DNA of 28,359 nt, taken from positions 1 through 28,359 of the forward strand of contig JBBQSO010000068.1 in NCBI GenBank assembly GCA_038213805.1. The letters run 5' to 3'. The DNA is from Planctomycetota bacterium. GTDB taxonomy: Bacteria > Planctomycetota > UBA11346. The notes beneath the pieces are model-generated. The model had not been told where the DNA came from, ran no database searches, and was given only the letters and a program-made list of their open reading frames with translations. Made by a program: the position numbers and the translations under genes. This document shows, piece by piece, positions 2,613-23,185 of the stretch (its first letter is position 1; the number at the start of each line of letters is the position of its first letter).

Positions 2613-2704
2613 GTTGGGGGAGCCGCAGCAGGCGGCCTCCCCCAACGAACGCGCCTACGGCGCTGCCCCCTATGTCTGACAGACCCTGGGTCGGCTGCGC
2701 CGAC
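2613..2704. repeat. ~90-bp REP/MITE-like multi-hairpin repeat, copy 1
   Basis: GGGGAGCCGCAGCAGGCGGC...GCGCCTACGGCGCT...GGGTCGGCTGCGCCGA, collinear with the copy at 2925-3013. Confidence 0.75.
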
Positions 2705-2801
2705 TTGGTGTGCCCGGTATAGCAGGCCGCATGGGGGCAGCGTCTCGCCACTGCCTTCCCCCAGGTCGCAGGGACGCTACAAGAAGCCCCACCGACGTCA
2801 T

Positions 2802-2888
2802 GGACCTGTGGCAGAGCGGTTGAATGCACCGGTTTTGAAAACCGGCAGGGGCGAAAGTCTCTCGTGGGTTCGAATCCCACCGGGTCCG
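2802..2888 (+). tRNA. tRNA-Ser (anticodon TGA)
   Basis: Acceptor stem GGACCTG/CGGGTCC with discriminator G, anticodon arm CCGGT-TTTGAAA-ACCGG, long variable arm, T-loop GGTTCGAATCC. CCA is not encoded. Confidence 0.97.
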
Positions 2889-2924
2889 ATTTTAACCAGG
2901 GTGAGCGGCAGCAGGTGCTCGCTG

Positions 2925-3013
2925 GTAGGGGAGCCGCAGCAGGCGGCGCCCCCGACAGACGCGCCTACGGCGCTTCCCCCATTGTCAGACAACCGCAGGG
3001 TCGGCTGCGCCGA
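2925..3013. repeat. ~90-bp REP/MITE-like multi-hairpin repeat, copy 2
   Basis: Direct repeat of 2613-2704. Begins GTAGGGG and keeps the hairpins GCGCC-TAC-GGCGC and TCGGC-TGC-GCCGA. Confidence 0.75.
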
Positions 3014-3123
3014 TTCGGTGAGCGGGCGACGACGCCGAGATCTGGGGCCATTTGGACTGCAGTCACGACTCAGGGAGCAGTTCCTAGGGTCTAGGGTCTA
3101 GCGCATAGCGCCTCCCCCACGGT

Positions 3124-5900: not shown

Positions 5901-6791
5901 TCACGGCCGATAGACGAAGCGCACGCCCACCAGCAGGTGCCGCGTGGCAGGGTCGATGTCGGCGCGATGTGCGGCGCGGGCGGTGGACACCGGGTCATTC
6001 CACGAGCCACCGCGCAGATGGCCCTCGCTGGTCTGCTCCCAGGCGTTGCCGTGCAGATCGTAGAAGCCCAGCGCCGTGGGCAGCAAGCCACCGACAGCCT
6101 GGGCACCGCGCGCGCCGCCCGCGCTCTCCGCGAGCAGGGCGTTAGCGGCGACCACCGCGGGCGCCTGGCTTTCGCCCCAGGCGAAGGTCCCGCCGCCGCT
6201 GCGCGCGGCGACCTCCCATTGCACGTCGCTGGGCAGGCCGAGCTGGACGTGATGACTGGCGAGATAGCCGGCGCAGGCGGCCACAGCCAGGTCATGGGAA
6301 ATGCCGATGGCCGGGAAGCTGTTGCCCACAGCGATGTCGCTGGCCGAAGTCGCCGAGACCAGCGTGGTCCATGGACTGCTGCCGGCGAGCACCTGCCACT
6401 GCGCCTGCGTGGTCTCGAAGACCGCGAGGTAGTAGCGCGGCGGGGCGGCGCTGGTCGCGGCCGGATCGACGCCCGCGCCGAGCGCCCCGCTGGCGGTGCC
6501 GATCGGGGTGGCGCCGGTCTCGACCAGGCGGAAGACCATCTTGGTGGAGCGGAAGGTCGGATCGCCGAGCAGATCGGGAACGCTGCCAGCTGCCTGGACG
6601 GTGCCGCTGGCGAGATCGAGGATCTGGTAGGCCGAGCGCGTGCGGCCGATGGCGGCGCTGAGCCCCGCGTCACTGCTGCCGGTTCCCGAGCCGGCGCCAC
6701 AACCCGCGATGGCGAGCAGCAGCGCGAGGCCGGCGCTGGCGGCGCAGATGCGCGCGCGCCGTGCTGGTGCCTGGGTGCAAGCGGTGCTCAT
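5901..6791 (-). CDS. SUMF1/FGE-sulfatase-fold lipoprotein (copy A), probably non-catalytic
   Basis: True start ATG 6791 overlaps the upstream TGA (ATGA). Lipobox LAIAG-C; FETTQAQW, LPSDVQWEVAAR, GFYDLHGNAWE, RGGSW, VGVRFV. Confidence 0.85.
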   Translation of the reverse strand: MSTACTQAPARRARICAASAGLALLLAIAGCGAGSGTGSSDAGLSAAIGRTRSAYQILDLASGTVQAAGSVPDLLGDPTFRSTKMVFRLVETGATPIGTASGALGAGVDPAATSAAPPRYYLAVFETTQAQWQVLAGSSPWTTLVSATSASDIAVGNSFPAIGISHDLAVAACAGYLASHHVQLGLPSDVQWEVAARSGGGTFAWGESQAPAVVAANALLAESAGGARGAQAVGGLLPTALGFYDLHGNAWEQTSEGHLRGGSWNDPVSTARAAHRADIDPATRHLLVGVRFVYRP

Positions 6792-9700
6792 CCGTTGCTC
6801 CCCACGCCGGCGTGGAAGAGGACCTGGATCGCCTGGAAAGTCGCGCTGCCGCTCACCGGGTCGACGATCAGGATGCCGATCTCCTGGTGCACCTCGGGCG
6901 CGCCGCCCGCCGTCCACGACACGGTCGCGGTGGCCGCACCGGTCTTGGTCACGGTCACGCCGCTCGGCGCACCGACGATCTGGAACTGCAGGTCGGCGCC
7001 GGCGGGCAGCAGGGTGGCGTCCGCCACCAGCGCGTAGACCAGGGGCGTGCCGAGGAAGCCCTCGCGCGGCGGGCTGGTCACGACCTGCGGGCGCGCCGCG
7101 GCCAGCCGCGACGACACCACCACCGTGGCGGTGGCCGGCGTCGAGGTGTTGATGCCGTCGCTGACCGCAAAGGTGAAGGCGTCGTTGCCGGTGTAGCCGG
7201 CGACCGGCGCATAGCCGACCAGTCCGGTGGCCGCGTCGAGCAGCGTCGCGGTGCCGTGCGTCGGCGCGCTCACCAGCTGCCAGGTCAGGACGTGGCCGAG
7301 CGGGCCGCTCGCCGGCAACAATCCGGAGGTGGGCAGATCCGAGACCGCGTAGAGGGTGACGTCCAACGCGGTGGGGACTGGCACCAGGGTGATCGTGGTG
7401 GTTGCCACCACGCTCGCCGCCTGGCCGTCGTTGGCGACCACCTGGACGGTGCGCACCGAGCCGACGGTGAACACCCCGTTGTGGGTGAAGCGCACATTGC
7501 GCAGCGCCGCCTGGGTCGCTGCCGGGGTGGCCTGGGCGTTCAGCGCCAGGACCAGCGGCGCGCCGCCGCTGCCGCCGGTGAAGGTGCCGATGGCGGTGCC
7601 GGCGAAGGTGACCGTGCCGCCCGCGACGCCGATCTGGCCGGCGCCGGTGCCGTCATCGCGCAGGTCGAGGACGTCGCCGGCCACACCGTTGGCAAGGCTG
7701 ATCGTCAGGGACCCGCCGGGGAAGGCCGCCGAATCGGCATCGGTGAGGGTGGCCGCGGCGTCGATCGCCAGCGGCGCATCGCCCTCCGTCCAGGTGCCAG
7801 GGGCACTCGGCAGCGTGACCACCGGTGGCACGTCGACGATTTGCACCGCGATGGTCTTGGTCACCGGCACGCTGCTGGTGCCAGCGCCATCGTTGAGCGT
7901 CACCTGCACGGTGCGCACCCCGCCGACGGGCGGCAGGGCCGCATCAAGGAAGGCCGCCTGGCGCAGCAGGGCCTGGGTCGCCGCCACGGTCGCGTTCGCG
8001 TCGAAGCGCACCAGCAGCGGGTTGGTGGCGGTGCCGGTGCCGCTCACCACGCCGAACGCGGTGCCCTCGTAGGAGACCACTCCGCCATTGACCGCGATCT
8101 GGCCGGGGCCCGACCCGGTGCTGGTGAAGAGCAGCTGGTCGTCGACGGTCGCCCCGGAGGTGAACTCGACGACCAGGAAGCCGGTCGGGTAGGCGGCGGT
8201 GTCGGGATCGCTGATGGTCGCCAGGGCATCCACCGGCAGCACGCCCTGGCCCTGCTGATAGGTGGCCGCGGGCGAGGGCAGGGTGACGACGGGCGCATTG
8301 TTGACCGCACTGAAGATCACCGTCAGCACTGCGGGCACGGACACGCCACCGACGCCATCGTTCGCCACGACGCTCAGCACGCGGTTGGCGATCGAGGGAT
8401 TGGACGACACGTTGGTGAAGCTCAGGTTGCGCAGCAGGGCCTGGGCGATCGCCGGGGTCGCCTGGCTGGTGAAGACGATGGTCAAGGGGCCGCCGTCGAC
8501 ACCGCCGCTGCTGAAGCCGACCACCGCGCCATTGAAGGAGATGGCGTTGCCAACCACCGACACCTGATTCGCACCGGCGCCCTGGTTGCGCACGGTGAGC
8601 TGGTCGTCGACGCCGGCGCCCGCAGTCCAGGTCGCGACCAGGGTACCGCCGGTGAGCTGCGGCGAATCGGCGTCGCTGAAGGTGGCGGTCGGATCAAGCA
8701 CGCGCGCGCCGCTGCCTTCAACATAGGTGATCGCGCGGCTGGGCAGGGTCACGACCGGCGCCTGGTCGACCGGCTGGACGATGATGTCCTTGCCGGCGGG
8801 CGCGCTGATGCCGCCGGCACCGTTGTCGAGCACCACCTGCGCGCGACGCGTCGCCGCGCTGGGCGCCGCATCGGCATTGTCGAAGGTGATGCTGCGCAGC
8901 AGCGCCTGCACCGCGGTCGGATCGGCGGCCGCCGCAAGCGTCACCACCAGCGCTGCGCCGCTGCCGCCGCTGAGCGTGCCGATGGGCGTGCCCTCGTAGT
9001 TCACGGTGCTGCCGGCGACGGCGATCTGGCCAAGGCCGTTGCCGACGCTGCGCACCGCCAGCAGGTCGCCGGCGCTGCCGTTGGCGATCAGCGAGATCTG
9101 CAGGTTGCCGCCAGCGAGCGTGCCGCTGGCATCGACGACCGTGGCGCCGCCATCAAGCACCACCGGCCCGCCGCCCTGCACCCAGGTCACCGCCGGCCCG
9201 GGCAGGGTCACGGCGGGCGTGGTGCCGACCGCCGCACCGCTGATGGTGATCGGGAAGGCGGTGACCGGCAGGCTGTTGCCCTGGGCGTTGACGACCGTGA
9301 ACTGGAAGCCGTCGCTGCCGGCCACGAAGCCGGTGTTGACGTAGCTGAGCAGGCCGGAATTGATCTCGGCCTGGGTGAAGGTGTCGCTGAGGGTCAGCGC
9401 GGTGCCGCCGAGCTCAAGCAGGCCGTCCGTCGGCAATGCCGAGAGGTGGTAGACCAGGGAGCTCGCCGGGCCGAAGTCCTGGGTCTCGAGCGCGAGGTAG
9501 CTGATCACGCCAGAGCCGTGCACCGCGACGGTCAGGCCGGCATCGGTGACCAGCACCGGGACGTGTGACTTGGGCGTGACGGTGACGGTGAAGCTGCGCG
9601 CCACGCGGTCGCGCCCGCCGTTGGCGGTGCCCCCATTGTCGGCGACCTGCACAAATATGGTGACCACTCCGCTCTGGTGCGCCAGCGGGGTGAACTGCAG

Positions 9701-11200
9701 CGCGCCCGCCGCCTGCGGCGAGGCGTAGAAGACCGTGGGGTTGGGGATGATGTCCGGCCGCGATGAGATCGCGGTGACGGTCAGCACCTGCGCAGCCTCG
9801 TTGGCCGGACCGGCGCTGATGCCGGCGATCTGCACGGTCTGGGCCGGGTCGTCCTCATTGATCACCAGGTCGGCGAGCGCGGCCAGGGTCGGGCGCTGGT
9901 TGACCGGCACGATCGTGAGCTGGAAGGTGCGACTAAAGGTGTCGAGCGACCCGAACGCGGTACCACCATCGTCATGCACGGTCACCGTCACCGTGGCGGT
10001 GCCGAACTCGAACGCGACCGGCGCGAGCATCAGCGTTCCGGTCGCCTGCGCGCTGGTGTAGACCACGGTCGGGTTGAGCAGGATCGCGGGGTTGCTTGAC
10101 GTGGCGGTCACGGTCAGGTTCTGCGCCACCAGGTCGCCGCCGTCGCCGATCCCGGTGAGCGGGATGCTGAGCAGACCCGAGTTCTCGAGCACGCTGCGGT
10201 CGGCGAGCACGTCGAGGGTCGGCGTGTGGTTGCGCGCCTGCACGCCCAGGACGCAGAACACCGTCGGACTGTCGAGCGCGCCATCGTTGACCACCACCGT
10301 CACCTGGCGGTTTCCGCCGATCGGCGGCGAGCCGACGTTGTCGTAGGTCAGGGTGCGCAGCACCGCCTGATACGCGGCCAGCGACGCGCTGCCGGTCAGG
10401 GTCAGCACCCCAGTCGCCGCGTCGAAGCTCTTGCTGATGCCGCCCTGCACGGTGGCGTCGAGCCGCTCGGCGGCGCCGTCCTGGCGCGCGGTGATGGTCG
10501 CGGTCGCCGAGACCAGGGTGGCGTTGTCCGGGTCGGCGACGGTCAGGGCGGTGGCATCGACCACCACCACCGCGCCTTGTCCCTCGATGAACAGCGCGGC
10601 GAAGTTGCCGCCGGCGACCAGCGGGCCATTGAGATCGAGGGCCGGCGCGTTGTTGACCGGGATCATGGTCAGCACGCAGTTTGCCGCGAGGCTGTCGACA
10701 AACCCGTCATTGACGATGACGGAGATGACGCGGGCGGTGGCGCTCGGATTCAGCGAACTGTTGTCGTAGACCAACGAACGCAACACCGCCTGGTAGTGGG
10801 CGACGGTGTCGACACCGCTCAGGGTGAGCAGGCCGGTGCTGGCATCGTAGCTCTTGGCGATCGCCGTGCCGGTGATCACCGCGTCGAGCAGTTCGGCGCC
10901 ACCGTCGAGCTGGTTGGTGATGCGCACGCGCGCACCCACCACCGTGTCCTGGATCAGGTCGGTGAGGGTCGCCGCGGCCGGATCGGCGATCGCCACCGCT
11001 CCGCCCGCCTCGGTGAAGGTCGCGGCGTAGTCGGCGCCGGCGACCAGCGCCCCATTGAGATCGACCACCGCCGGCTGCTGCGCGATGGTGAAGGAGGCGT
11101 TCACGTCGAGGGCCGCCGCATAGGGCGCACAGATCAGCGCGGCCATGCCCAGTAGGGCACGGACGAACAGCTGGCGCAGATGCGGCAGGCGGAGGGGCAT
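6788..11200 (-). CDS. Large secreted adhesin-like protein with cadherin/Ig-like repeats (adhesin A, 1470 aa)
   Basis: Signal peptide ending AAA. Repeats with VNNAP/VNQRP/VDQAP linkers, ~125-aa QALLR..F repeats, a CSPG/Cadherin_3-like unit (FTQAEIN.G.L.Y) and a Big_9-like unit (PTHG..Y.P..GYTG.D.FTF.VSDG). Confidence 0.85.
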   Translation of the reverse strand: MPLRLPHLRQLFVRALLGMAALICAPYAAALDVNASFTIAQQPAVVDLNGALVAGADYAATFTEAGGAVAIADPAAATLTDLIQDTVVGARVRITNQLDGGAELLDAVITGTAIAKSYDASTGLLTLSGVDTVAHYQAVLRSLVYDNSSLNPSATARVISVIVNDGFVDSLAANCVLTMIPVNNAPALDLNGPLVAGGNFAALFIEGQGAVVVVDATALTVADPDNATLVSATATITARQDGAAERLDATVQGGISKSFDAATGVLTLTGSASLAAYQAVLRTLTYDNVGSPPIGGNRQVTVVVNDGALDSPTVFCVLGVQARNHTPTLDVLADRSVLENSGLLSIPLTGIGDGGDLVAQNLTVTATSSNPAILLNPTVVYTSAQATGTLMLAPVAFEFGTATVTVTVHDDGGTAFGSLDTFSRTFQLTIVPVNQRPTLAALADLVINEDDPAQTVQIAGISAGPANEAAQVLTVTAISSRPDIIPNPTVFYASPQAAGALQFTPLAHQSGVVTIFVQVADNGGTANGGRDRVARSFTVTVTPKSHVPVLVTDAGLTVAVHGSGVISYLALETQDFGPASSLVYHLSALPTDGLLELGGTALTLSDTFTQAEINSGLLSYVNTGFVAGSDGFQFTVVNAQGNSLPVTAFPITISGAAVGTTPAVTLPGPAVTWVQGGGPVVLDGGATVVDASGTLAGGNLQISLIANGSAGDLLAVRSVGNGLGQIAVAGSTVNYEGTPIGTLSGGSGAALVVTLAAAADPTAVQALLRSITFDNADAAPSAATRRAQVVLDNGAGGISAPAGKDIIVQPVDQAPVVTLPSRAITYVEGSGARVLDPTATFSDADSPQLTGGTLVATWTAGAGVDDQLTVRNQGAGANQVSVVGNAISFNGAVVGFSSGGVDGGPLTIVFTSQATPAIAQALLRNLSFTNVSSNPSIANRVLSVVANDGVGGVSVPAVLTVIFSAVNNAPVVTLPSPAATYQQGQGVLPVDALATISDPDTAAYPTGFLVVEFTSGATVDDQLLFTSTGSGPGQIAVNGGVVSYEGTAFGVVSGTGTATNPLLVRFDANATVAATQALLRQAAFLDAALPPVGGVRTVQVTLNDGAGTSSVPVTKTIAVQIVDVPPVVTLPSAPGTWTEGDAPLAIDAAATLTDADSAAFPGGSLTISLANGVAGDVLDLRDDGTGAGQIGVAGGTVTFAGTAIGTFTGGSGGAPLVLALNAQATPAATQAALRNVRFTHNGVFTVGSVRTVQVVANDGQAASVVATTTITLVPVPTALDVTLYAVSDLPTSGLLPASGPLGHVLTWQLVSAPTHGTATLLDAATGLVGYAPVAGYTGNDAFTFAVSDGINTSTPATATVVVSSRLAAARPQVVTSPPREGFLGTPLVYALVADATLLPAGADLQFQIVGAPSGVTVTKTGAATATVSWTAGGAPEVHQEIGILIVDPVSGSATFQAIQVLFHAGVGSNG

Positions 11201-11202
11201 GT

Positions 11203-12174
11203 TCAGGGCTTGGTAGCAGCGGGCGGGGCGCTGTAGCGGAGACGGATGAGTTCGCTGCGTTCGTAGTCGGCGCCGGCGAGGTGGCGGCGCTGCTTGGCGG
11301 AGAGGCCGGGTCCGGCGCGGCGGGCGAGGAACAGCACCTCGTCAACCTGCTCGTCCGCTTGCAGCGCGCGGGCGGGCTTGGCCGCCAGGTGCAGCAGGCG
11401 GGTGGCACCGGGGGCGAGGGTGAAGGAGGCGGTATCGGGAAGCGCCCAGTCCTGATCCATCAGCCCGGTCTGGCGCGCGCCGAAGAAGCGGTTGCGACGC
11501 TCCTCCTCGCCTGCTCCGTACGCCTGGCGCAGGGTCAACAGGTCATACGTGGCGGGATGATCGTCATGGTTGGTGATCTCGACCTCGCCGCTCCAGCCGC
11601 CGTCGCCGTGCGGCACCATCTCGACCCGGCCAGGGGCGAGGGCGATGCCAGCGGCATGTTCGAGCGCCCCAGGATGGGGGTCGACCGCTGTCTCGATCAT
11701 CACACGCGCGCGCACCCGCAGCGCTGCGCCCAGGGCTGCGGTCGACTTGGGGCCAGCCTCGACATAGAGCATGAAGTGGCGGTTGGCGAGCTCGGGCTTT
11801 AAGGGGATGTCCAGCGTGACCCCGGCATGCGCCGTGCCGTGCGCCGGAACCTTCAGCACATTGTGGTCGAGGTGTACCCAGGACGCGTCGGGCAGCGGTT
11901 CGTAACCCGCTTCGTAGGAGGCGATCTCGTCCGGGCCGGGGACGATAGCCACCAGTTCGAAATCCTCGTCCGTACCGCCGGCGTTGCTGACCTGAATGTT
12001 CAGGCCCTGCGCACCGAGATCGAGCCGCACGCCGGGCGGCGCGTCCTCAATCAGAACGATGCCTGGCGAGATGCCCAGACCGCCGCCATCGGCCGCCATC
12101 ACTGCTGAAGCAGAGAACAGGCCACAGGTGATAAAGGCGACGAGCGGGTGCCGTCGATGATGATGCAAATGCAT
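11203..12174 (-). CDS. Secreted protein with two PapD/DUF916-like Ig domains (putative fimbrial chaperone)
   Basis: ATG 12174 with RBS GAAAGGGGG and a signal peptide. Two related halves: GLGISPG..VSN..SWV..LKVPAHG and GIALAPG..ITN..DWA..FTLAPG. Confidence 0.6.
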   Translation of the reverse strand: MHLHHHRRHPLVAFITCGLFSASAVMAADGGGLGISPGIVLIEDAPPGVRLDLGAQGLNIQVSNAGGTDEDFELVAIVPGPDEIASYEAGYEPLPDASWVHLDHNVLKVPAHGTAHAGVTLDIPLKPELANRHFMLYVEAGPKSTAALGAALRVRARVMIETAVDPHPGALEHAAGIALAPGRVEMVPHGDGGWSGEVEITNHDDHPATYDLLTLRQAYGAGEEERRNRFFGARQTGLMDQDWALPDTASFTLAPGATRLLHLAAKPARALQADEQVDEVLFLARRAGPGLSAKQRRHLAGADYERSELIRLRYSAPPAATKP

Positions 12175-12215
12175 GTTGCCCCCCTTTCGGTGGGTTGATG
12201 TGTAGTGCCCGCTGC

Positions 12216-12812
12216 TCAGAACGCAGTGCCGAGGAAGGTAAACGTCACGGTCTTGCCTGCACCCACACCACCGGTGAAGGAGCTCGGCACGGTGAAGGCG
12301 AACCATATCGAAAGGGTCGAGGCGGTCTCGGCGACGGTAGCAAATGCGTTTGAGCCAGCGACCAGGGTACCCGCGGTGAACACCGCCGCGGTATCGGCCG
12401 GAGGCGTGTTGTTGGCGGTGCATGCGGCAACAAACTGGTTGGCACCCGCCGAGGCGCCGGCAGCCCATCCGGCCGAGGTCGGGGTGACTGTCAGGACCAC
12501 AGCGTCGCCAGTCAGGGTTTGGTTGGTGATGACGAGCGTGGTACCGTCCGCGAGCGGCCAACCGGCGCCGTTGGTTTTGCTGAGGGCGTTGGTGACCGTG
12601 CTGAAACTCGCGCCGAGAGTGGCGAGACCAATTGGCCAGGAAACAGGAGCGGTTCCCGAAACGCCTCCGGTTCCACCCCAGACGATGCTGACGTCCTTTG
12701 AGACGGTGAACGTGGTGTTCACGACGAGCGAAGACGCAGCATCAGCGTGCTGGACGATCGCAGCGCCGGCGAGCAGCGCGAGGATGGGGATGAGGCGGTT
12801 GCGGCGTTTCAT
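12216..12812 (-). CDS. Small secreted beta-rich pilin/WxL-like fibre subunit (198 aa)
   Basis: ATG 12812; signal peptide MKRRNRLIPILALLAGAAIVQHADA. Mature part is T/A/G/V-rich with alternating strands and ends KTVTFTFLGTAF. Confidence 0.6.
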   Translation of the reverse strand: MKRRNRLIPILALLAGAAIVQHADAASSLVVNTTFTVSKDVSIVWGGTGGVSGTAPVSWPIGLATLGASFSTVTNALSKTNGAGWPLADGTTLVITNQTLTGDAVVLTVTPTSAGWAAGASAGANQFVAACTANNTPPADTAAVFTAGTLVAGSNAFATVAETASTLSIWFAFTVPSSFTGGVGAGKTVTFTFLGTAF

Positions 12813-13405
12813 GGCAGTGGCTTTCGGTTTTGGGTGCAGGGGACGTAGGATGGAGCGGAATGACATGGCGGGATTCCTTGGCGATGCGGTCTGAGACCGC
12901 GGGATTGGTGGAAGGATAGGGCTTGGAGAACTCAGCAGTGTACCCCCTGCGACCATTGGGAGCAACCCCACCCGAGACCCTTTGTGAGGTTCTGAACAAC
13001 CTTTCATCTCGATATTGAGACTTTGGTTACGTCGATTCGCTACAGCTGCATCAATTTGCGAACGGTCGCCTGCTTGCGAAAACTCCGCCTATCCTGCGCA
13101 GTGCGAGGCCAGCTTGCGCAGAGCTTGCCGGTGCGAACGAGCGCTGACTGGACGGCAGGCGAACGGACGCATTGCGCTGCGCTGGCACGGACGCGAGCCG
13201 CCTGATCTGCGTCTCGCCCACGCAGGCGAGGAAGGAGGGCGGTGCTGAGGCGGTGCTGATTGAAGGGTACACATCAGCGCACCATGCAGCGAATGCTCGT
13301 GCATGGCTGGTGATCCAGGCGCGCCGGGATCAGAGCATCCACGAAGGCACCCCGATGGTGTCACCGCGCATGTCCTTCAACGCTGCAGAGCAGCCTGCGA
13401 CGACT

Positions 13406-14293
13406 TTAAGGCTGGTAGACGAAACGCACCCCGACCAGCAGGTGCTTCGTCGCCCGATCGATGTCGGCGCGGTTGGCCGCGCGCGCGGTCGAGACCGGAT
13501 CGTTCCACGAGCCGCCGCGCAGGTGCGATTCCGCGCTCAGTTCGGAGACATTGCCGTGCAGATCGTAGAAGCCGAGGGTCGACGGTGCGAAGCCAGCGAC
13601 CGGCTGCGCACCGCGCGTGGCGCCGGCGGTTTCGGCGACCAGGGCGTTGGCTGTCACCACCGCCGGTGCCAAGCTCTCACCCCAGGCGTAGGTGCTGGTG
13701 GTACCCGCGCGCGCAGCGATCTCCCACTGCACGTCGCTGGGCACCGCGAGGTGCACACTGCGGGCGGCCAGATAGCCCTGGCAGGCGGTATTGGCCAGGT
13801 CGAGGCTGATGCCGATCGCCGGATAGGTGTCGCCGACGCGGACGTCCTCCGGCCCGGTCGCGGAGATCAGCGTGGTCCAAGGCGTGCTCGCCGCGATCAC
13901 CTGCCACTGCGCCTGCGTGGTTTCGAATACGGCCAGGTAGAAGCGGTCCGGTGCCACTGCCGCCGCGCCCTGGTCCACACCCGTACCCAGTCCGACGCTG
14001 GCGGTGCCGACCGCGCCGGGCAGGTGCACGCGGCGGAACACCATCGAGGTGGTACGATAGAGCGGATTGCTCAGCAGGTCGGGGACCTGGCCGGCGGGAT
14101 GGACCGTGCCGGTGAGCAGATCCAGGATCTGGTAGCTGGCGCGGGACTTGGCGATCGCAGAGCTGAGCCCGGTATCCTGCGAGCCGGTGCCGGAACCGCC
14201 GCAGCCTCCGAGCACCAGCGCGCCGATCACCAGCGCTGCGGCGCAGACGCCACTCCGTGCAGAAATCGTGCACATGGTTCTGGACATGGTCAT
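13406..14293 (-). CDS. SUMF1/FGE-sulfatase-fold lipoprotein (copy B)
   Basis: Lipobox LVLGG-C. Collinear paralogue of 5901-6791, with ATGA overlap to the upstream adhesin. Confidence 0.85.
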   Translation of the reverse strand: MTMSRTMCTISARSGVCAAALVIGALVLGGCGGSGTGSQDTGLSSAIAKSRASYQILDLLTGTVHPAGQVPDLLSNPLYRTTSMVFRRVHLPGAVGTASVGLGTGVDQGAAAVAPDRFYLAVFETTQAQWQVIAASTPWTTLISATGPEDVRVGDTYPAIGISLDLANTACQGYLAARSVHLAVPSDVQWEIAARAGTTSTYAWGESLAPAVVTANALVAETAGATRGAQPVAGFAPSTLGFYDLHGNVSELSAESHLRGGSWNDPVSTARAANRADIDRATKHLLVGVRFVYQP

Positions 14294-17200
14294 CCGCTCC
14301 CCCCTGCCGCCGCATGGAACAGCACCTGCACGGCTTGGCTGGCCGCGGCGCCGCTCACCGCATCGCTGATCAGGATGATGATCTCCTGATGTTCCTCGGG
14401 CGTGCCGGTGGCGGTCCAGGTCACGGTCGCGGTGGTCGGGCCGGTTCTGGTCACGGCCACGCCGGCAGGTGCGCCAACCGCCTGGAAGACCAGGTCAGAA
14501 CCCGGCGGCAGCAGGCTGGTGTCGGCGACCAGGTCGTAGGTCAGGGGCGAACCCAGGAAGCCTTCGCGCGGCGGGCTGGTCAGAACCTGCGGGCGCGCCG
14601 CGGCGAGTGGCACCGCGACCAGCATGGTCACCGTCGCCGGCGCGGAGACGGTGACCCCGTCGCTGACCGTGACGGTGAAGGAATCGCTGCCGGTGAAACC
14701 GGCGGCGGGCGTGTAGCGCACCGCGCCGGTGGTCGCGTCGAGCAGCGTGGCAGTGCCACGCGCCGGCTGGCTGGCCAGGGCCCAGGTCAGCGCGCCCCCC
14801 TCGGGATCGCTGCCCACCAGCAGTCCGTCGCGGGCGAGGTCCTGGACGGCGCCGAAGGTCACCGCGCTGGCGGTGGGCGGATCGTCGACCGGCACCAGAT
14901 CGACGACCGCGCCGGCAGTGTTGCCATCCGCCTGGCCATCGTTGGCCACCACGGCAAAATTACGCGTCTCTGCACTGGTGAACTCGCCGACGTGGCTGAA
15001 GACCACCGCGCGTAGCACCGCTTGGGCCGCGCCAGGCGTCGACAGCGGGCCGAAGCTGACTACCAGCGGCGAGCCGGGGCCGGCTCCGCCGGCATAGGTG
15101 CCGACGGCGATGCCGCTGACCAGCACCGACCCATTGCTGGTCGCGACCTGTCCGGCGCCAACGCCCGAGCTGCGCAGGTCGAGCACGTCCCCCGCGACCG
15201 CGTCGCTGCCGGTCACGGTCAGCGAACCGCCGTTGAAGGTCGCCGAATCGATGTCGCCGAGTACTGCGCCCGGTGCGATCGCGACCGGCAGATCGTGCTC
15301 CGTCCAGGTCGCAGGCGGATCCGGCAGCGACAGCGATGGCGCCACGTTCACCGCCTGCACGGTGACGATGCTGGTCACCGGTAGGCTGGTGCCGCCAGCG
15401 CCGTCGGTAAGCACCACCCGCACGGTGCGCGGCCCCCCCACCGGCGGCACTGCGACGTCGGCGAAGGCGAGCTGCCGCAGCAACGCCTGGGTTGCTGCGA
15501 GGGTCGCGGACGCGTTCAGACGCACCAGCAAGGGGCCGCCGATGGTGCCCGGTGCAGTGAGGATGCCGATCGGCACGCCTTCATAGAGTACGTCGCTGCC
15601 GCTGACCGAGATCTGCCCGGTGCCGGTGCCCTGACTGAGCACGGTGAGCTGGTCGTCGGCGGTCGCACCCGCGGTGAAATCGACCACCAGCAGGCCGGTG
15701 GGATAGGTCGGGGTGTCGATGTCGGTGAGACTGGCCAGCCCATCAAGCGCCTGCGGGGGCGCCCCCTGCAGGTAGAGCAGCCCCGGCGACGGCAGGGTCA
15801 CCACCGGCGGGTTGTCGACGGCTTCTACCACCACGGTCAGGGCTGCGGGCACCGAGACCCCGCCAGCGCCGTCACTGATCACCACCGCAAGCTGGCGCAG
15901 CGCGAGCGACGGGGTCGCCGAGGTGTTCGTGAAGGCAAGATTACGCAGGATCGCCTGGGCGATGGCCGGTGTCGCCTGAGCGGTGAAGGTTACGGTCAAG
16001 GCCGCGCCGGCAGCGCCCCCGGCGACGGTGGCCACATTCACACCGTCGACGCTGATCGACGTGCCGACGACGTGCACCTGCCCAGCCCCCGCGCCCTGGT
16101 CGCGGATGGTCAACTGGTCGTCGACCGTGGCGTTCGCCGTCCAGGTCGCGACCAGAGTCCCACTGGCGAATGCCGGCGAGTCGGGATCGATGACCGTGGC
16201 ACCGCCATCCAGCACCTGCGCACCGCTGCCTTCGAGATAGGCGACGGTGCGCGCCGGCAGATCGACCAGCGGCGCCTGGTTGACCGGCTGCACCTGCACG
16301 TCCTTGGTCACGGCCGCGCTCGTGCCGCCGGTGCCGTTGGTCAGCAGCACCTGCACGCGGCGCGCGGCGGCGCTCGGTGCGGCATCGCCGCTCGCGAACA
16401 GCAGGTTGCGCAGCAGTTCCTGCACGCCAGCCGGCGTGGCGGTACCGGCAAGCACCACCACCAGATCGCTGCCCACGCCGCCGCTGACGCTGCCGATGGT
16501 CGCACCCTGATACGTGACGATGCCGCCCGAGATCGCGACCTGCCCCGGACCGCTGCCGACGCTGCGGAACGACAGCAGGTCGCCGGCGCTGGCGTTCTGG
16601 GTCTCGTGCACGACCAGGGTGCCGCCGACCAGGCTGCCGGGATCGGCGACGGTGGCGGTGGCGTCGACCACCACCGCGCTGCCGCCCTGCACCCAGGTCG
16701 GCGGCGCCCCCGGCAGCGTCACCACCGGCGTGGTGGTGGCGAGATTGCCGGCGATGGTGATGGCGAAGGCGGTCGGCGCCAGGGCGTTGCCATCGCTGTT
16801 GGTGACGGTGAAGGTGAAGCCATCGCTCTCAGCGACGCTGCCAGTATGCGCGTAGAGCAGCAAGCCGGCGTCGATGTCGGCCTGGGTGAAGGTCGCGCCG
16901 GCACCGAGCGCGATCCCGGCGCGGCTGAGCGCGCCCTTGGTCGGCGGGGCAGCGAGATGGTAGACGAGCTGCGCCGGTGCGCCGAAATCACTGACCGTCA
17001 GCTTCGCAGAGGACACCACCGCGGCACCACGGATGGGTAGAGACAAACCGGTGTTCACCGTCACCACCGGAGTATGCGGAATGGCGGCGATGGTGACGTT
17101 GAAGGTCAGCAGGGTGCTTGCGTTGCCGCCATTGGCAGTGCCGCCGTCGTCGCCGACGGTGACCAGGATCACCGCGCTGCCACTGACGTGCGCAGTGGGC

Positions 17201-17841
17201 GTGAAGGTCAGGGTCGCGCTCGCGCCAGGACTGGCGTAGCCGACTGCGATGGCGGGGATCAGGTCGGGACGCGAGGACAGCGCCGCGACGCTGACCACCT
17301 GCCCGGATTCGTTCGCCGGCCCGGCGGCGATGCCGGTCAGGGTCACGACCTGCTGCGGCGCGTCCTCGCTGAGCGCGACATCGCCGGGCTGGGCGACCAC
17401 GGGTGGATCGTTCACCGGCAGCACGGTGACCGTGAAGGTGCGCGTGCGGGTGCCGGTCGGGAAGCCGTTGTCGCTCACCGTCACCGTCACCGTGGCGGTC
17501 CCGAAGGCGTCGGGCACCGGGGCGATGCGCAGCGTCGCGGTGGCCGCCGGACTGGCATAGACCACCGTGGGATCGAGCAGCACGCTGTGATCGCTCGACA
17601 CCGCGCTGACGGTCAGCACCTGCCCACCATCGCCACCGTCGCCGATGCCGGTCAAGGCGATGCCCTGCACGCCGCTGTCCTCGGTGAGGGTCAGCGGCGC
17701 CACCACGTCGAGGGTCGGCGTCTGGTTGGCACCCGCGGCCTGCGGCGCCGCCAGCACCAGCAGTGGCGCCAGCGCGAGCAGCCGCCGCAGGGTCGGCGGC
17801 AGCGCGCGCAGGTACGCAGGATGACGACTGGGACCGCGCAT
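14290..17841 (-). CDS. Large secreted cadherin/Ig-repeat adhesin-like protein (adhesin B, ~1183 aa)
   Basis: Likely start ATG 17841, 10 nt after the kinase stop; signal peptide ..LLALAPLLVLAAPQAAGA. Collinear with adhesin A from NxTPTLDV to the C-terminus. Confidence 0.85.
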   Translation of the reverse strand: MRGPSRHPAYLRALPPTLRRLLALAPLLVLAAPQAAGANQTPTLDVVAPLTLTEDSGVQGIALTGIGDGGDGGQVLTVSAVSSDHSVLLDPTVVYASPAATATLRIAPVPDAFGTATVTVTVSDNGFPTGTRTRTFTVTVLPVNDPPVVAQPGDVALSEDAPQQVVTLTGIAAGPANESGQVVSVAALSSRPDLIPAIAVGYASPGASATLTFTPTAHVSGSAVILVTVGDDGGTANGGNASTLLTFNVTIAAIPHTPVVTVNTGLSLPIRGAAVVSSAKLTVSDFGAPAQLVYHLAAPPTKGALSRAGIALGAGATFTQADIDAGLLLYAHTGSVAESDGFTFTVTNSDGNALAPTAFAITIAGNLATTTPVVTLPGAPPTWVQGGSAVVVDATATVADPGSLVGGTLVVHETQNASAGDLLSFRSVGSGPGQVAISGGIVTYQGATIGSVSGGVGSDLVVVLAGTATPAGVQELLRNLLFASGDAAPSAAARRVQVLLTNGTGGTSAAVTKDVQVQPVNQAPLVDLPARTVAYLEGSGAQVLDGGATVIDPDSPAFASGTLVATWTANATVDDQLTIRDQGAGAGQVHVVGTSISVDGVNVATVAGGAAGAALTVTFTAQATPAIAQAILRNLAFTNTSATPSLALRQLAVVISDGAGGVSVPAALTVVVEAVDNPPVVTLPSPGLLYLQGAPPQALDGLASLTDIDTPTYPTGLLVVDFTAGATADDQLTVLSQGTGTGQISVSGSDVLYEGVPIGILTAPGTIGGPLLVRLNASATLAATQALLRQLAFADVAVPPVGGPRTVRVVLTDGAGGTSLPVTSIVTVQAVNVAPSLSLPDPPATWTEHDLPVAIAPGAVLGDIDSATFNGGSLTVTGSDAVAGDVLDLRSSGVGAGQVATSNGSVLVSGIAVGTYAGGAGPGSPLVVSFGPLSTPGAAQAVLRAVVFSHVGEFTSAETRNFAVVANDGQADGNTAGAVVDLVPVDDPPTASAVTFGAVQDLARDGLLVGSDPEGGALTWALASQPARGTATLLDATTGAVRYTPAAGFTGSDSFTVTVSDGVTVSAPATVTMLVAVPLAAARPQVLTSPPREGFLGSPLTYDLVADTSLLPPGSDLVFQAVGAPAGVAVTRTGPTTATVTWTATGTPEEHQEIIILISDAVSGAAASQAVQVLFHAAAGGSG

Positions 17842-17851
17842 GGCGCCGGAC

Positions 17852-20800
17852 CTACGGCCGCGCCCAGTCGGCGTCGATCGCGATGCGCAAGCCGACGTAG
17901 GCGGAGCGCACGTCGCTGGCCAGGGCGCGCCGGCAGCCGGCGCGCAGCAGCTCCGGCAGGTCGCCCCACGAGCCGCCGCGGATGACCTGGGTTTCGGCGC
18001 GCGGGGCGCGGGGATCGCTGACTGGGACAACGTTGTAGGGGCCGTAGCCGTCGGCGCACCATTCCCACACGTTGCCCTGCATGTCATAGAGCCCGAGCGG
18101 ATTCGCCGTGCGCGTGCGCACCGGCTGCGTATCGCCGCCGGCGCCCTGCGCAGAAACCGCGCTGCGGTCGAGGTCGACCTGCGCGCCGTCGGCCAGCGGG
18201 AACGGCCCGGGGACGCCGGCGCGGCAGGCGTATTCCCATTCCGCTTCGCTGGGCAGGCGGCAGGGCAGACCCCCCGGGACGCGCTTGGCGAGCGCGGAGA
18301 GGAAGTGCTGGCTGTCGTTCCACGACACGCGCTCGACGGGGTGGCCGTCGCCGGCGTGGTAGGCGGGGGTGGTGCCGGTGATGGTGCGCCACACCAGCTG
18401 GGTGCACTCGCTGTCCGCCAGCCACAGGCCGCGGGTCAGGCGCACCGCGACCTGGCGCTCGTCGGTCCCGCGCCCGGGCTCGTCGGCGGGACTGCCCATG
18501 GTGAAGGCGCCCGGCGGGATCCAGCGAAAGCGCTGGCGCAGCGCGCCGATGCTCAGCTCCGCCCAAGTGCCGTGCGCGTCGTGGCCGGATACGCTTGCCC
18601 AGGGCGGGTGCGCCGGCCCGAGCAGCATCGCCAGCCGGGTGCGCGCCTTGACCAGGCCGGGCTCTTCGGCGCCGATCTCGGCGGCGAGGCCGTCGCAGGC
18701 CTCCTGCGCGCCGGCGGATGGGACATAGGCCTCGTCGAGTCCGTGCAGCTGCGCGCCGAACGCGGCGCAGCGTGCGAGCTTGCCTGACCAGCGCACGGCG
18801 TCGGCGTCATCGTCGCCGACCAGGGAACGGAGCCGGCCAACCTGGTCGGCGGCGCCGACGGGGATGGGCCGCGCCGCGTCCAGCGCGGTGAGCTGGCCCT
18901 TGAGGTCGCCGACCGCGGCGAGCTTGTCGCCCCAGCGCCGCACATCGGCGGCGGTCGGACCGACCAGCGCAGCGAGGCGCGCGAGGTCCTCGGCGGCGTG
19001 CGGCGGCAACGCCCGCGGTTGGTCGAAGGAAGCGAGATGCCGGCGCAGCGCGCTGAGCTCATCGAACTTGGTCCGCCACGGCTTGACGTGGGTGTCACCG
19101 GCCTCTGCGAGCCGCTCGTACTGGTCGAGCAGCGGGCGCAGCTGGTCGTCGACGTCGGCGGCACGGTCGAGCACCGCGAGGCGCTCGCCGAGCAGCACCA
19201 GGCGCGCCGCGTCGCGCGCCAGGCGCTCATTGATGCGTTGCGCCTCGGCCGGATCGAGCGCCTGGACCGCGGCCAGCCCGGCCACGGTGGTGCGCAACAG
19301 GGTCTGCTCTTCGGCGCTGAGCTGCTCCTTGCCGGCCAGCGAGGCCAGCACCTGGCGGCGCGTGGCGACGCGCGCGCGCGCCTCGTCCAGGTGCTGCTGC
19401 CAAGCGCGCCCTGCGGCCTCGTCGCCCACGATGGCGCGCCATTCGCCGAGCGCGGCCTGCAGGGCGTCAAGGCTGGCGAGCGGCAGGTCGTCGTGGCCTA
19501 GCGCACCGAGCTGCACGCTCAGCGCCTCGCGCCGCGCCTCGGCGCCGGCCACGCGCGCACTCCAGCGCACGCGGTCGCGGTCGTCGCCCGCTGACAGCGT
19601 CTGGAACTCCTGCCACTCGTGCGCCAACCCGGCGAAGGCGGCGAGCGAGGCGGTGGGCCCCGCATCGAGCTGCGCGAGGACCTTGCGTAGCGCGGCGACG
19701 TGCGCGGCGGTGGCGCGCGCGCGCGCCGACCAGCGCAGCACCTCGTCATCGGCGTCGCCGACCAGTGCGGCAAGGCGCGGCAGGTCGGCCTCGGCGGTGG
19801 CCTGCAGCGCCGGCGGCACGGCGCCGGCGGCATCAAGCGGCGCGAGCCGGGCGCGCAGCGCAGCGATGCGCGTGTCGGACGCCGCGAGCTTGGCCGCCCA
19901 GCCGGCGACCTGCGGGTCGTCGGCCCCGCCCAGGCGCTGGGCCACCGCGAGCAGCGGCAGCAGACGGTCGTGCAGGGCGCGCGTCGGGACCTCGGTGGCG
20001 TCGAGCTCGGCGAGCTGGGCGCGCGCCTCGCGCAGGTCGCGCTCGGCGTCGCCGAGGCGCTTGGCCCATTCCACGGCGAGCGGATCGGTGGTACCGCATT
20101 CCGCGACGAAGGCCTTGAGCGCCGGGGACAGCGCGGCGATGGCGGCGTGGTCGAGCGCGTCGCTGCGCCCGGCGAGCTGGGCGCGCAGGGCGGCGACGCG
20201 TTCGAGCTTGGCCGCCCAGCGCGCCACCTGCGGGTCGCGCGCCCCGCTCAGCGCGCGCAGCTGCGCAAGCGTCGCGTCGACGTCGCTGGGCAGCGCCTGC
20301 GGCTGGTCAAGACCGACCAGCCGCATCCGCAGGCCCTCGGCCTCGCCGCGCTTGGCGAGCAGCCACCACACGCCCAGCGAACTCAGCAGCACCAGCCCGG
20401 CGAGCCCGGCGGCAAGCGGCTTCCAGTGCCGACGCAGGCCGCCGCCGTGACGCGCCAGCGCGGCATCGGCGCCGGTGCAGACGCGGCCCTTCGCAAACAC
20501 CGCACCCTGAGGCTCGCGGCCGAGCTCGACCGCCTCGAGGTCAGCGAGCAGCGCCGTGGCGTCGGCGTAGCGCTCATCAGCGGCCTTGCGCAAGCAGGTG
20601 AAGACCACCGCCTGCAGCCGTGGATCGGCGTCGGCGATCTGGTCGGTGATGAGCTTGGGTTCGACGAAATGATGCTGGTAGATCAGCGCGTCAGCGGTCT
20701 CGCCGCTGAACGGCTGCGCCAGGGTGAGCAGCTCATAGATCACCGCGCCGAGTGAATAGATGTCGGAACGCTGGTCGACCGCGTCACCGCGGCCCTGCTC

Positions 20801-21535
20801 AGGACTCATGTAGGACGGCGTGCCCATGGCCGTGCCGGTCATGGTCATGGCCTCCTCGCCGAGCACCTTGACGATGCCGAAGTCGGCGATCTTCACCACC
20901 CCCTCGCGGGTGAGCATGAGATTGCCGGGCTTGATGTCGCGATGCACCAGCTGGTGGCGGCCAGCCTCGACCAGGCCGCGAACCGCCTGGATGGCGAGCC
21001 CGACGGCCTCGGCGCTGGTCCACGGCCCTTGGCCCGCCTCGCGGCGCAGCTTGACCAGGTCGCCGAGGCTGCGGCCGTCGACGAACTCCATCTCGAGGTA
21101 GCACAACTGCCCATAGCGGCCGCCGCCGAACACCTTGACCACATGCAGCGAATCGAGCGCCTGCGAGATGCGCGCCTCGCGTTCGAAGCGTACGCGGAAG
21201 GCGGCGTCGTCGGCGAAGCGCGCGGGCAGGATCTTGAGCGCGACCAGGCGTCCGTCGCCGCGGTGGCGCGCGAGGTAGACCGCGGCCATGCCGCCTTCAC
21301 CGAGCAGGTCGCCGATCTCGTAGTCCTTCCACTGCGCGCCCGACACCGGGCCCTTGCGCCCATCGGTGCTCAGGACCGCGCGCTGCGCATCCAGGGCTGG
21401 ATTGCTGCCCTGACCTGGGCCATCGCTGGCGAGGTCGGCCTCGGTGAACAGGAACGGGCGCGTGCCGCTGCTGCCACCGCTCTGGTGGGCGGGGCGTTCG
21501 CCTGGCGGTGCGGGTTGTCCGGAAAGGATGGGCAT
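17852..21535 (-). CDS. Transmembrane Ser/Thr kinase with extracytoplasmic helical repeats and C-terminal SUMF1/FGE domain
   Basis: Kinase: LGEGGMAAVY, VALK, HRDIKPGN, DFG, GTPSYMSPE. TM: LAAGLAGLVLLSSLGVWWLL. About 11 helical repeats follow. FGE motifs: FTMGSP, RLPSEAEWEYACRAG, GLYDMQGNVWEWC, RGGSW. ATG 21535 preferred because it lies after the upstream stop. Confidence 0.9.
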   Translation of the reverse strand: MPILSGQPAPPGERPAHQSGGSSGTRPFLFTEADLASDGPGQGSNPALDAQRAVLSTDGRKGPVSGAQWKDYEIGDLLGEGGMAAVYLARHRGDGRLVALKILPARFADDAAFRVRFEREARISQALDSLHVVKVFGGGRYGQLCYLEMEFVDGRSLGDLVKLRREAGQGPWTSAEAVGLAIQAVRGLVEAGRHQLVHRDIKPGNLMLTREGVVKIADFGIVKVLGEEAMTMTGTAMGTPSYMSPEQGRGDAVDQRSDIYSLGAVIYELLTLAQPFSGETADALIYQHHFVEPKLITDQIADADPRLQAVVFTCLRKAADERYADATALLADLEAVELGREPQGAVFAKGRVCTGADAALARHGGGLRRHWKPLAAGLAGLVLLSSLGVWWLLAKRGEAEGLRMRLVGLDQPQALPSDVDATLAQLRALSGARDPQVARWAAKLERVAALRAQLAGRSDALDHAAIAALSPALKAFVAECGTTDPLAVEWAKRLGDAERDLREARAQLAELDATEVPTRALHDRLLPLLAVAQRLGGADDPQVAGWAAKLAASDTRIAALRARLAPLDAAGAVPPALQATAEADLPRLAALVGDADDEVLRWSARARATAAHVAALRKVLAQLDAGPTASLAAFAGLAHEWQEFQTLSAGDDRDRVRWSARVAGAEARREALSVQLGALGHDDLPLASLDALQAALGEWRAIVGDEAAGRAWQQHLDEARARVATRRQVLASLAGKEQLSAEEQTLLRTTVAGLAAVQALDPAEAQRINERLARDAARLVLLGERLAVLDRAADVDDQLRPLLDQYERLAEAGDTHVKPWRTKFDELSALRRHLASFDQPRALPPHAAEDLARLAALVGPTAADVRRWGDKLAAVGDLKGQLTALDAARPIPVGAADQVGRLRSLVGDDDADAVRWSGKLARCAAFGAQLHGLDEAYVPSAGAQEACDGLAAEIGAEEPGLVKARTRLAMLLGPAHPPWASVSGHDAHGTWAELSIGALRQRFRWIPPGAFTMGSPADEPGRGTDERQVAVRLTRGLWLADSECTQLVWRTITGTTPAYHAGDGHPVERVSWNDSQHFLSALAKRVPGGLPCRLPSEAEWEYACRAGVPGPFPLADGAQVDLDRSAVSAQGAGGDTQPVRTRTANPLGLYDMQGNVWEWCADGYGPYNVVPVSDPRAPRAETQVIRGGSWGDLPELLRAGCRRALASDVRSAYVGLRIAIDADWARP

Positions 21536-21542
21536 GGCGGTC

Positions 21543-22214
21543 TCAGCGGATCGGCGGCGGGGTGCCACCGAAACGGTAGGCCACGCCGATGAAGCCGGTC
21601 GGTCCGGATTGGTCGAGGGAGACGTCCAGCCCCTCCCCGGAGAGCGTGGCGGCGCTGACCAGCCAGCCGGCGCGCGCCTGGATCAGCCAATGTCGGCTGA
21701 GCGCATAGGACACGCCAACGTCAGCGCCGTAGTCGATGACGTGGCCGCTGGTGTTTATGGGCTGGAAGAACTCGTTGCCGGGGATGCGGAAGCGGCCCAG
21801 TCCCGCGCCGACGAACGGGCAGATCTCGGCCGTCCACTGATCGTCGAAAGCGTAGGCGTAGCCAGCGAGCGCGCGCAGCATCGCCACGTCGTAGCGGCCG
21901 CTCCCGCCATAGGTGTAGGTCTGCAGGTCGAGCGCACCACCGACGAAGAATGCGCCGCTGCTGCCCGGTGCGCCGAAGGCGTAGACTCCACGCCCGGCCA
22001 GGCCGAAACCGTATTCGAACGTGCTGGTGCCGGAGACGTCACTGCCGCTGTCGTGGACGTGGTAGGTGAACGAGGTCGGCAGCGATTCGATCCCGAAGCG
22101 CAGGTCCGACAGCACCACTTCGGCCGCGGGCAGTGCCGCAGTGCCAACGAGCAACGTGCATGCGAGCCAGGAGCGGCGCCGGTCGCGGTGCGGTGATGGG
22201 TGGAGACTGGTCAT
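21543..22214 (-). CDS. Small outer-membrane beta-barrel protein (OmpA/OmpW-like size)
   Basis: RBS AGGGAG before ATG 22214 and a signal peptide. Amphipathic strands LAGYAYAF, PFVGAGLG, VGVSYAL; terminal GFIGVAYRF. Confidence 0.75.
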   Translation of the reverse strand: MTSLHPSPHRDRRRSWLACTLLVGTAALPAAEVVLSDLRFGIESLPTSFTYHVHDSGSDVSGTSTFEYGFGLAGRGVYAFGAPGSSGAFFVGGALDLQTYTYGGSGRYDVAMLRALAGYAYAFDDQWTAEICPFVGAGLGRFRIPGNEFFQPINTSGHVIDYGADVGVSYALSRHWLIQARAGWLVSAATLSGEGLDVSLDQSGPTGFIGVAYRFGGTPPPIR

Positions 22215-23122: not shown

Positions 23123-23185
23123 GGCTGATGGCTGATGGCTGATGGCTGATGGCTGATAGCTGACGGCTGACGGCTGACAGCCGAT
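23123..23185. repeat. Heptanucleotide tandem array (GGCTGAT)5 plus degenerate units
   Basis: Five perfect GGCTGAT units, then AGCTGAC, GGCTGAC x2 and AGCCGAT. Confidence 0.95.

Follow-up and report, generated by a model that had tools for sequence, protein, structure and literature searches.

The 28,359-base window analysed here, which is the whole of contig C68 in a 5.5 Mb, 180-contig and 90% complete genome, carries eight minus-strand genes at positions 5901-22214 that are proposed to encode a lineage-specific, multi-copy cell-envelope module. In the direction of transcription, they encode a small outer-membrane beta-barrel (B), a receptor Ser/Thr kinase (K), a giant repeat protein and an FGE-fold lipoprotein (adhB and lipoB, of the types A and L), a small secreted subunit (g5), a periplasmic Ig-like protein (g6) and a second pair of giant protein and lipoprotein (adhA and lipoA). 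The first four make up B-K-A-L, which is with certainty a conserved functional unit, and the C-terminal domain (CTD) of A is strongly predicted by complex modelling to dock onto L. The module looks like an apparently undescribed way to anchor, and perhaps to monitor, fibres of the cell envelope. After choice of plausible start codons, the intergenic gaps were, in order, 7, 10, -4 (an ATGA overlap), 593, 41, 2 (between the stop of g6 and the start of adhA) and -4 bases. These sizes divide the genes into two blocks, so that coordinates and gaps agree with the eight co-oriented and tightly spaced genes in two blocks of the original prediction.

Conservation of the B-K-A-L unit

The recurrence of the unit was assessed on 27 K-bearing loci from 20 genomes of family f1 of uncultured Planctomycetota, eight of which were chosen by an L match together with a long FGE-bearing frame on one contig and 19 by K-match rank. 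Gene presence was scored by BLAST and family hidden Markov models. L was found at 25 of these 27 loci, B at 24 and A at 24, and all four genes were present at 21 loci, or at 22 if the divergent A of locus L015, seen by eye alone, is counted; the rank-picked subset held all four genes at 14 of 19 loci. Of the 22 four-gene loci, 21 showed a rotation of K-A-L-B (BKAL, ALBK or KALB), the exception being L079 with the order K-B-A-L-A-L, and A was located directly upstream of L at every locus holding both. A second full module is present in the window's own genome on contig C6, and L proteins, often in many copies, occur in all 24 other f1 genomes. Outside f1, the L query gave weak matches to the FGE core only. 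A wider locus search that started from the L alignment relied on a single generic FGE pattern; it returned mostly ordinary FGE-domain genes, matched at residues 108-285, and therefore says little about the distribution outside this family. The recurrence of the same genes in many genomes places the arrangement far beyond chance, and the co-occurrence of homologues elsewhere, which was checked and found, supports the view that the genes belong together. The idea of a single eight-gene system has to be given up: there are instead two separable conserved units, B-K-A-L and g5-g6-A-L, which are found apart in other genomes.

The evolution of the unit was followed in trees of L, B, K and the A CTD built from 18-19 modules, and the four trees agree on the main clades. 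The window groups with L017 and L012 with SH-aLRT values of 99, 99, 99 and 93 in the trees of L, B, K and A CTD, respectively, and the pair of L084 and L085 reaches 100 in all four. In the trees of L, B and A, the five loci with the order KALB are monophyletic (SH-aLRT 92, 94 and 88); in the K tree, the clade that unites them (98) also includes L079. In each of the four trees, the window's module belongs to another clade than its C6 paralogue. From this agreement it follows that the modules duplicate and diverge as units.

Two loci are recorded here as observations in their own right. In L011, from a genome of the same genus (G003:C36), both adhesin genes are split over several frames, by either frameshifts or assembly errors in these long repetitive genes. 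In L086 (G385:C238), K is followed at 7297-8100 by a lipoprotein with repeated Ig-like modules, with no recognisable A before the contig end; this may be a variant module.

Predicted docking of the giant protein onto its lipoprotein

The two lipoproteins of the window, which are 65% identical, match the FGE-sulfatase family (PF03781) with 62.8 bits and an E value of 5e-17 for lipoB and 57.3 bits for lipoA, at a cut-off of 23.3. In FGE, the pair of active-site cysteines follows an RGGS motif. This pair is missing in K and in all 26 aligned L proteins, and catalytic FGE activity was rejected as a function for them; the cysteine of the lipobox, found in 26 of 26 L proteins, is the sole invariant cysteine of the alignment. 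The presence of three FGE-fold domains devoid of the catalytic cysteines, which had been noticed in the bare sequence, was thus upheld by the alignments of K and L.

Each of the 25 A proteins examined has at its end a conserved CTD of ~100 amino acids (aa), which opens with the motif [ST]-x-P-P-[RMLF] and closes in a short Gly-rich tail. We take the opening motif to resemble the C/S-x-P-x-R motif of sulfatases, as a lead only. For complex prediction, the last 230 aa of adhB (24-row alignment) were combined with residues 22-285 of lipoB (26-row alignment). This modelling, which had been proposed as a check, predicted an interface with an ipSAE of 0.92 in all three runs, compared to 0.00 for the best of three controls, with at least 64% of the contacts in agreement between runs and a partner pLDDT of at least 89. 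Of the solved complexes, 116 of 157 attain the same mark, compared to 2 of 215 mismatched pairs. It counts against too firm a reading that the score expresses model confidence and that these calibration counts are only rough with user-supplied alignments.

On the side of the CTD, the predicted interface comprises residues 121-140, including the SxPP motif, 152-157, 194-200 and 214-221, and on the side of L residues 91-97, 131-140, 198-214 and 248-277, the last of which directly follow RGGSW, the site of the cysteines in FGE. Variability is higher at the interface positions of L than elsewhere in its FGE part (entropy 2.11 versus 1.68, Mann-Whitney p 0.013), and conserved anchors in L (D255, H274 and L276) face T/S135, P137, P138 and Q216 of the CTD. 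In the model, this combination of a variable interface with conserved anchors fits a cognate lock-and-key on a common frame. In both A-L pairs of the window, the start of L overlaps the stop of A by ATGA, and these overlapping reading frames suggest matched amounts of the two proteins. The proposal that a giant adhesin is paired with an FGE lipoprotein is therefore backed by three lines of evidence: the invariant A-then-L adjacency, the ATGA overlap and the complex prediction.

Barrel and receptor kinase

B matches the outer-membrane barrel family OMP_b-brl (PF13505) with 33.2 bits at a cut-off of 28.7. K consists, in this order, of a cytoplasmic kinase domain, one transmembrane helix, about ten helical repeats of 52 aa and a C-terminal, non-catalytic FGE/C-type-lectin-fold domain. 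The kinase domain (Pkinase, PF00069; 135.9 bits, E 2e-39) is intact as judged from the HRD and DFG motifs readable in the translation. The repeats, which lie between the transmembrane helix and the FGE domain, are marked by a conserved Trp every ~50-56 residues. The terminal domain matches FGE-sulfatase with 123 bits (E 2e-35, against the cut-off given above for L) and, when aligned with Streptomyces FGE (6muj/2q17), has a gap and a Pro in place of the two cysteines. Full-length matches to the K ectodomain, with a helical spacer of similar length, were obtained in all 23 f1 genomes sampled; outside f1, among the matches listed for a 401-genome sample of the phylum, the query matched the FGE part alone. 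Further FGE-domain proteins are encoded in the host genome G000 on contigs C62, C27, C15, C107 and C37 (loci L020-L022), and include kinase-FGE fusions of 676 to ~1600 aa without A, L or B nearby.

K may relay the state of the adhesin inward, an idea based on the conserved synteny, the shared fold and the frequent FHA-domain kinase neighbours. The FHA-PP2C kinase gene of the window, which is encoded on the plus strand next to lipoA, stays beside the orthologous module in the genomes G003, G022 and G009, and a second kinase gene adjoins the module at 12 of the 27 loci, these three orthologues counted. Seven kinase neighbours of paralogous modules were scanned against Pfam: in five, a kinase is combined with an FHA domain, DUF4388 being present as well in two of these five, and in the other two proteins no FHA domain was detected. 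The FHA-PP2C-kinase protein is likely to be a cytoplasmic signalling partner of the module, and the neighbouring FHA kinases support a possible phospho-Thr relay.

The best surviving alternative, to which we grant a limited chance, is that the FGE/C-type-lectin domain of K binds a ligand unrelated to A, such as a glycan or a foreign protein, either external or periplasmic, and that K regulates the expression or activity of A, L and B without any physical coupling to them. Proteins of the type kinase-transmembrane helix-CLec/FGE have indeed been described as putative ligand or antigen sensors (PMC10907252; PMC5758913, category b12), and the FGE domain of K is only ~27-30% identical to L and closest in sequence to PvdO and TvpA. 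Against this stands the co-diversification of K with L, B and A, each paralogous module keeping its own K, for which direct contacts between cognate proteins are an easier explanation than a regulator common to all. The length of the helical spacer, kept in the full-length ectodomain matches, all of which come from f1, also speaks against a ligand receptor independent of the assembly.

The g5-g6-A-L unit

The structure model of g6, computed from 16 sequences (pLDDT 84.1, pTM 0.80), consists of two Ig-like domains. Its best structural match, by Foldseek and VIA-align, is WxLIP of Enterococcus faecium (9i1y; Z 12.1, rmsd 2.8, 123 residues, 17% identity), and the next fold matches are the PapD-like chaperones Caf1M, YadV, CsuC, FimC and PapD (Z 9.4-10.6), together with ASH domains. 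The g6 profile retrieved 1158 representative proteins at E <= 0.001; among 65 scanned of the best 150 relatives listed, most had no Pfam match and 10 matched WxLIP_PGBD (PF06030) below the cut-off. Among 301 genomes sampled from the phylum, g6 was detected in 6, two of them outside f1, and within f1 in 14 of 48.

A g5-like gene is located directly upstream of g6 at 12 of 14 loci examined, the remaining two being L094, where the contig ends at this point, and L186, where none was detected. The alignment of the g5 family contains three invariant Trp residues, and the nearest named Atlas clusters, WxL (0.83) and SCPU (0.82), are leads only. The large protein encoded downstream of g6 carries, at its mature N-terminus, the beta-strand motif of the local g5, of the type V-N-x-T-x-T-[IV]. 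In the window, this strand opens the extra N-terminal part of adhA. Sharing of the motif was observed at 10 loci, from four f1 genera and two other families, and the motif varies from locus to locus together with g5. Donor strands of chaperone-usher pili and of the recently described WxL pilus show the same behaviour. This pattern in the sequences suggests a donor-strand-type assembly without an usher. The labels originally given to the two small proteins agree with these results, 'chaperone' with the fold of g6 and 'pilin' with the N-terminal strand motif shared by g5.

In genus g32, g5 and g6 are followed by a short protein with an A-type CTD, flanked by an L gene. The predicted docking pair of CTD and L therefore also serves a cassette for which the fetched stretch showed neither K nor B. 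In two other Planctomycetota families, represented by L194 (G312:C157) and L195 (G303:C110), a cassette of g5-like gene, g6-like gene and large protein was observed. The large proteins of these two loci are quite different, yet each opens with a strand of the local g5 type, and L194 has two tandem g5-like genes.

Proposed explanation and alternatives

The explanation that we prefer, and to which we assign about an even chance as a whole, combines a core of A and L with B and K and with the g5-g6 block. A, exported by Sec, would be held by its CTD in the former substrate face of its cognate L. B would sit with L in the outer membrane, and K would span the periplasm on its about ten helical repeats with a second dead FGE domain at the tip; both placements are drawn from synteny and co-diversification. 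K could then read the state of the A/L/B assembly, or a shared ligand, and signal to the neighbouring FHA-domain kinases and phosphatases. Fold and motif suggest that g6 acts as a periplasmic chaperone and g5 as a small subunit, and units of g5 might attach, through strand complementation and with no usher involved, to adhA at its distal, N-terminal end.

Several points weigh against this explanation. The module encodes no translocator, and A could for this reason be periplasmic, the barrel of ~190 residues being too small to serve as one. K may sense an unrelated ligand, as set out above. At five loci (L072, L080, L081, L086 and L088), the fetched stretch does not contain all four genes; L072, L086 and L088 lie close to a contig end, and in L080 and L081 only B is missing. 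The tree of the A CTD is weakly resolved, with only one starred branch. At the level of sequence, g6 has no link to PapD or WxLIP, either through a Pfam family or a PDB chain, and the profiles of both g5 and g6 gave only chance-level matches to PDB sequences. The model of g5 is too poor to be of use (pLDDT 47).

A second alternative, which in our view has a small chance of being right, is a diversifying system of self/non-self or anti-invader recognition, in which the paralogous modules would act like a repertoire for innate immunity or kin recognition, and A would be displayed as a bait or a recognition fibre. FGE ('FGS') domains have been proposed to act as non-enzymatic binders of invaders in conflict systems, those of planctomycetes included (PMC7159879), the L family is strongly expanded, with as many as 29 matches in a genome at E <= 0.001, any FGE-domain match counted, the predicted L interface coincides with the more variable positions, and FHA and kinase signalling is nearby. 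On the other hand, the variable face of L is predicted to bind the module's own A and not a foreign ligand, and no toxin, nuclease, protease, STAND or vWA-MoxR effector was found among the proteins of the window. The absence of matches to the reverse transcriptase family (PF00078) in the 90%-complete genome, with positive controls in three genomes, also led us to reject a diversity-generating retroelement (DGR), template and variable repeats not having been searched for.

The remaining alternative, a motility or secretion apparatus like gliding and type IX secretion system (T9SS) of Bacteroidota, in which L would correspond to GldJ/GldK/PorK, B to a PorP/SprF anchor and A to the mobile adhesin SprB recognised via its CTD, has only a slight chance. 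The FGE-fold lipoproteins PorK/GldK and GldJ do appear as weak matches and PDB sequence matches and the A CTD with cognate barrel and FGE lipoprotein does mirror the SprB/SprF logic, but GldK (TIGR03525) scores 67.1 bits on K, 33.2 on lipoB and 16 on lipoA at a cut-off of 350, and B matches OMP_b-brl and not PorP_SprF (the absence of SprA_N, PF14349, and PorP_SprF, PF11751, from the genome is uninformative either way, because control genomes were also silent, and motor genes were not searched for).

Returning to the A/L-based explanation, a more specific form of it is conceivable, although we regard it as unlikely in full. L would be a pseudo-enzyme that holds A via the pseudo-substrate [ST]-x-P-P-[R/M/L/F], whose predicted position is against the former cysteine loop of L, and the dead-FGE tip of K would compete for, or read, the same motif. 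The module would then act as a trans-envelope sensor of occupancy or tension for each surface fibre, and g5 and g6 would build an usher-less, donor-strand-type fibre on the N-terminus of the adhesin.

The envelopes and giant genes of Planctomycetota are poorly understood, and the module provides a concrete, testable unit with a CTD as putative address tag and a pseudo-FGE lipoprotein as its receptor, together with a cognate barrel and a Hanks-type kinase predicted to span the periplasm. Should the docking prove real, the FGE/C-type-lectin fold would have a new job, the anchoring of the cell's own fibre, and the module would be a model of the monitoring of single surface fibres by bacteria.

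Gene content and genomic setting

The features of the window that bear on the module are listed in Table 1. Both A proteins match Cadherin_3, Big_9 and Cadherin_5 in Pfam and the tandem-95 repeat in NCBIfam, and g5 and g6 have no match in either collection. No other Pfam match than those named was obtained for the eight proteins at E <= 0.01, autotransporter, RTX and TpsB families not having been searched for separately. Signal peptides, including that of adhB, and lipoboxes are readable in the translations of the cluster.

Table 1 Position and assignment of the features of the cluster and of the adjacent signalling gene within the window.
Feature	Position	Strand	Assignment	Basis
B	21543-22214	-	small outer-membrane beta-barrel, 223 aa, signal peptide	PF13505 OMP_b-brl
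K	17852-21535	-	receptor Ser/Thr kinase, 1227 aa	Pkinase and FGE-sulfatase
K transmembrane helix	20354-20416	-	residues 374-394	hydropathy window
K FGE-fold domain	17879-18520	-		FGE-sulfatase match and alignment
A (adhB)	14290-17841	-	giant secreted cadherin/Ig-repeat protein, 1183 aa	
adhB CTD	14293-14622	-	conserved C-terminal domain	alignment of 25 CTDs
L (lipoB)	13406-14293	-	non-catalytic FGE-fold lipoprotein, 295 aa	
g5	12216-12812	-	small secreted beta-rich subunit, 198 aa	
g6	11203-12174	-	periplasmic two-domain Ig-like protein, PapD/WxLIP-like fold, 323 aa	
A (adhA)	6788-11200	-	giant repeat protein, 1470 aa, ends in same CTD as adhB	
L (lipoA)	5901-6791	-	second FGE-fold lipoprotein, 296 aa	
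FHA-PP2C kinase	3161-5857	+	FHA - DUF4388 - SpoIIE(PP2C) - Ser/Thr kinase - transmembrane protein	Pfam

The window has a GC content of ~70% and the cluster is flanked by ordinary genes, encoding PilM, a tRNA, HupE/UreJ, a ferritin-like protein, thioredoxin, a TolC-like OEP and a lipocalin. A promoter scan gave no promoter-like site, a terminator scan gave three terminator-like sites compared to 4.3 expected by chance, and the Rfam scan detected the tRNA alone, outside the gene cluster. This tRNA gene (2802-2888, plus strand, Rfam 59.2 bits) falls inside a long open reading frame at 2508-3101, which is for this reason considered spurious. Positions 1-2402 of the minus strand hold a PilM_2-type type IV pilus assembly gene (E 1e-43), which adjoins the FHA-PP2C-kinase gene, and then a small membrane protein; no PilM homologue was found in the 12 related loci compared. 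Tandem heptamers are present in intergenic DNA, GGCTGAT with 7.9 copies at 23123-23177 and TGATGGC with 4.7 copies at 26037-26069, and the repeat recurs as a peptide-like string in several spurious open reading frames between 22.4 and 26.7 kb. The heptamer is a dispersed short repeat element.

Comparison with known systems

The original prediction named no known system of this composition, and our literature searches, which covered sources other than subscription journals and supplements, likewise found no description of a module made up of barrel, kinase-FGE, giant repeat protein and FGE lipoprotein. Judged from its sequence, the module is not a member of the DGR, conflict-system FGS, kinase-transmembrane helix-CLec or T9SS groups, the controls for the T9SS core genes being silent.

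The likeness to the gliding and type IX secretion machinery of Bacteroidota lies in a giant repeat adhesin recognised via its C-terminal domain, a small cognate outer-membrane barrel encoded beside it and non-catalytic FGE-fold lipoproteins; PorK, GldK and GldJ are described as non-catalytic FGE/C-type-lectin binding modules in type IX secretion and gliding. The differences are the other phylum, the other Pfam family of the barrel and the presence of a receptor Ser/Thr kinase in the module studied here.

Sensing of the envelope via outer-membrane lipoproteins is known from RcsF-OMP-IgaA in the Rcs system and from NlpE in the Cpx system, and LapD/LapG control the giant adhesin LapA from the inside out. 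The present module is similar in that a lipoprotein, with or without a barrel, would report the state of the surface inward, or in an envelope-spanning control of adhesin retention. The protein families are unrelated, however, the kinase is of the Hanks type instead of a His-kinase or a c-di-GMP receptor, and no protease is involved.

With TvpA and other variable proteins of DGRs, the module shares the FGE fold as a binding module, and the kinase-transmembrane helix-CLec architecture is known from that context (PMC10907252). Among DGR targets, to which TvpA belongs, one class has a kinase domain (PMC5758913), and the predicted binding face of L corresponds to the C-terminal region that is variable in DGR proteins. 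In the module, by contrast, diversity arises from duplication of whole modules, and L is predicted to bind the CTD of the adhesin encoded by the module itself.

The g5-g6 block finally resembles both the WxL (Elr) pilus and the chaperone-usher systems in the fold of g6 and in the position of a small subunit gene before the chaperone-like gene. A classical chaperone-usher system was rejected: usher (PF00577), whose absence from the window had already been noted, and PapD_N (PF00345) have no match anywhere in the 90%-complete genome, and the E. coli control was positive. No PapD_N, WxLIP or WxL Pfam match was found for the block, and g6 differs in having no C-terminal membrane helix. The likeness to the WxL pilus extends to the large protein of the same operon, which shares the N-terminal strand of the subunit like the donor strands of ElrD/C/B, and the WxL system is reported to be confined to Bacillota (both from bioRxiv 10.64898/2026.10.17.759780). 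The g5-g6 cassette occurs in three Planctomycetota families and the g6 profile retrieves over a thousand representative relatives; g5 and g6 may thus belong to an unrecognised pathway of assembly by strand complementation in diderm bacteria. If the specific mechanism proposed above is true, the usher-less fibre would be the first such donor-strand system outside the chaperone-usher and the Bacillota WxL pathways.

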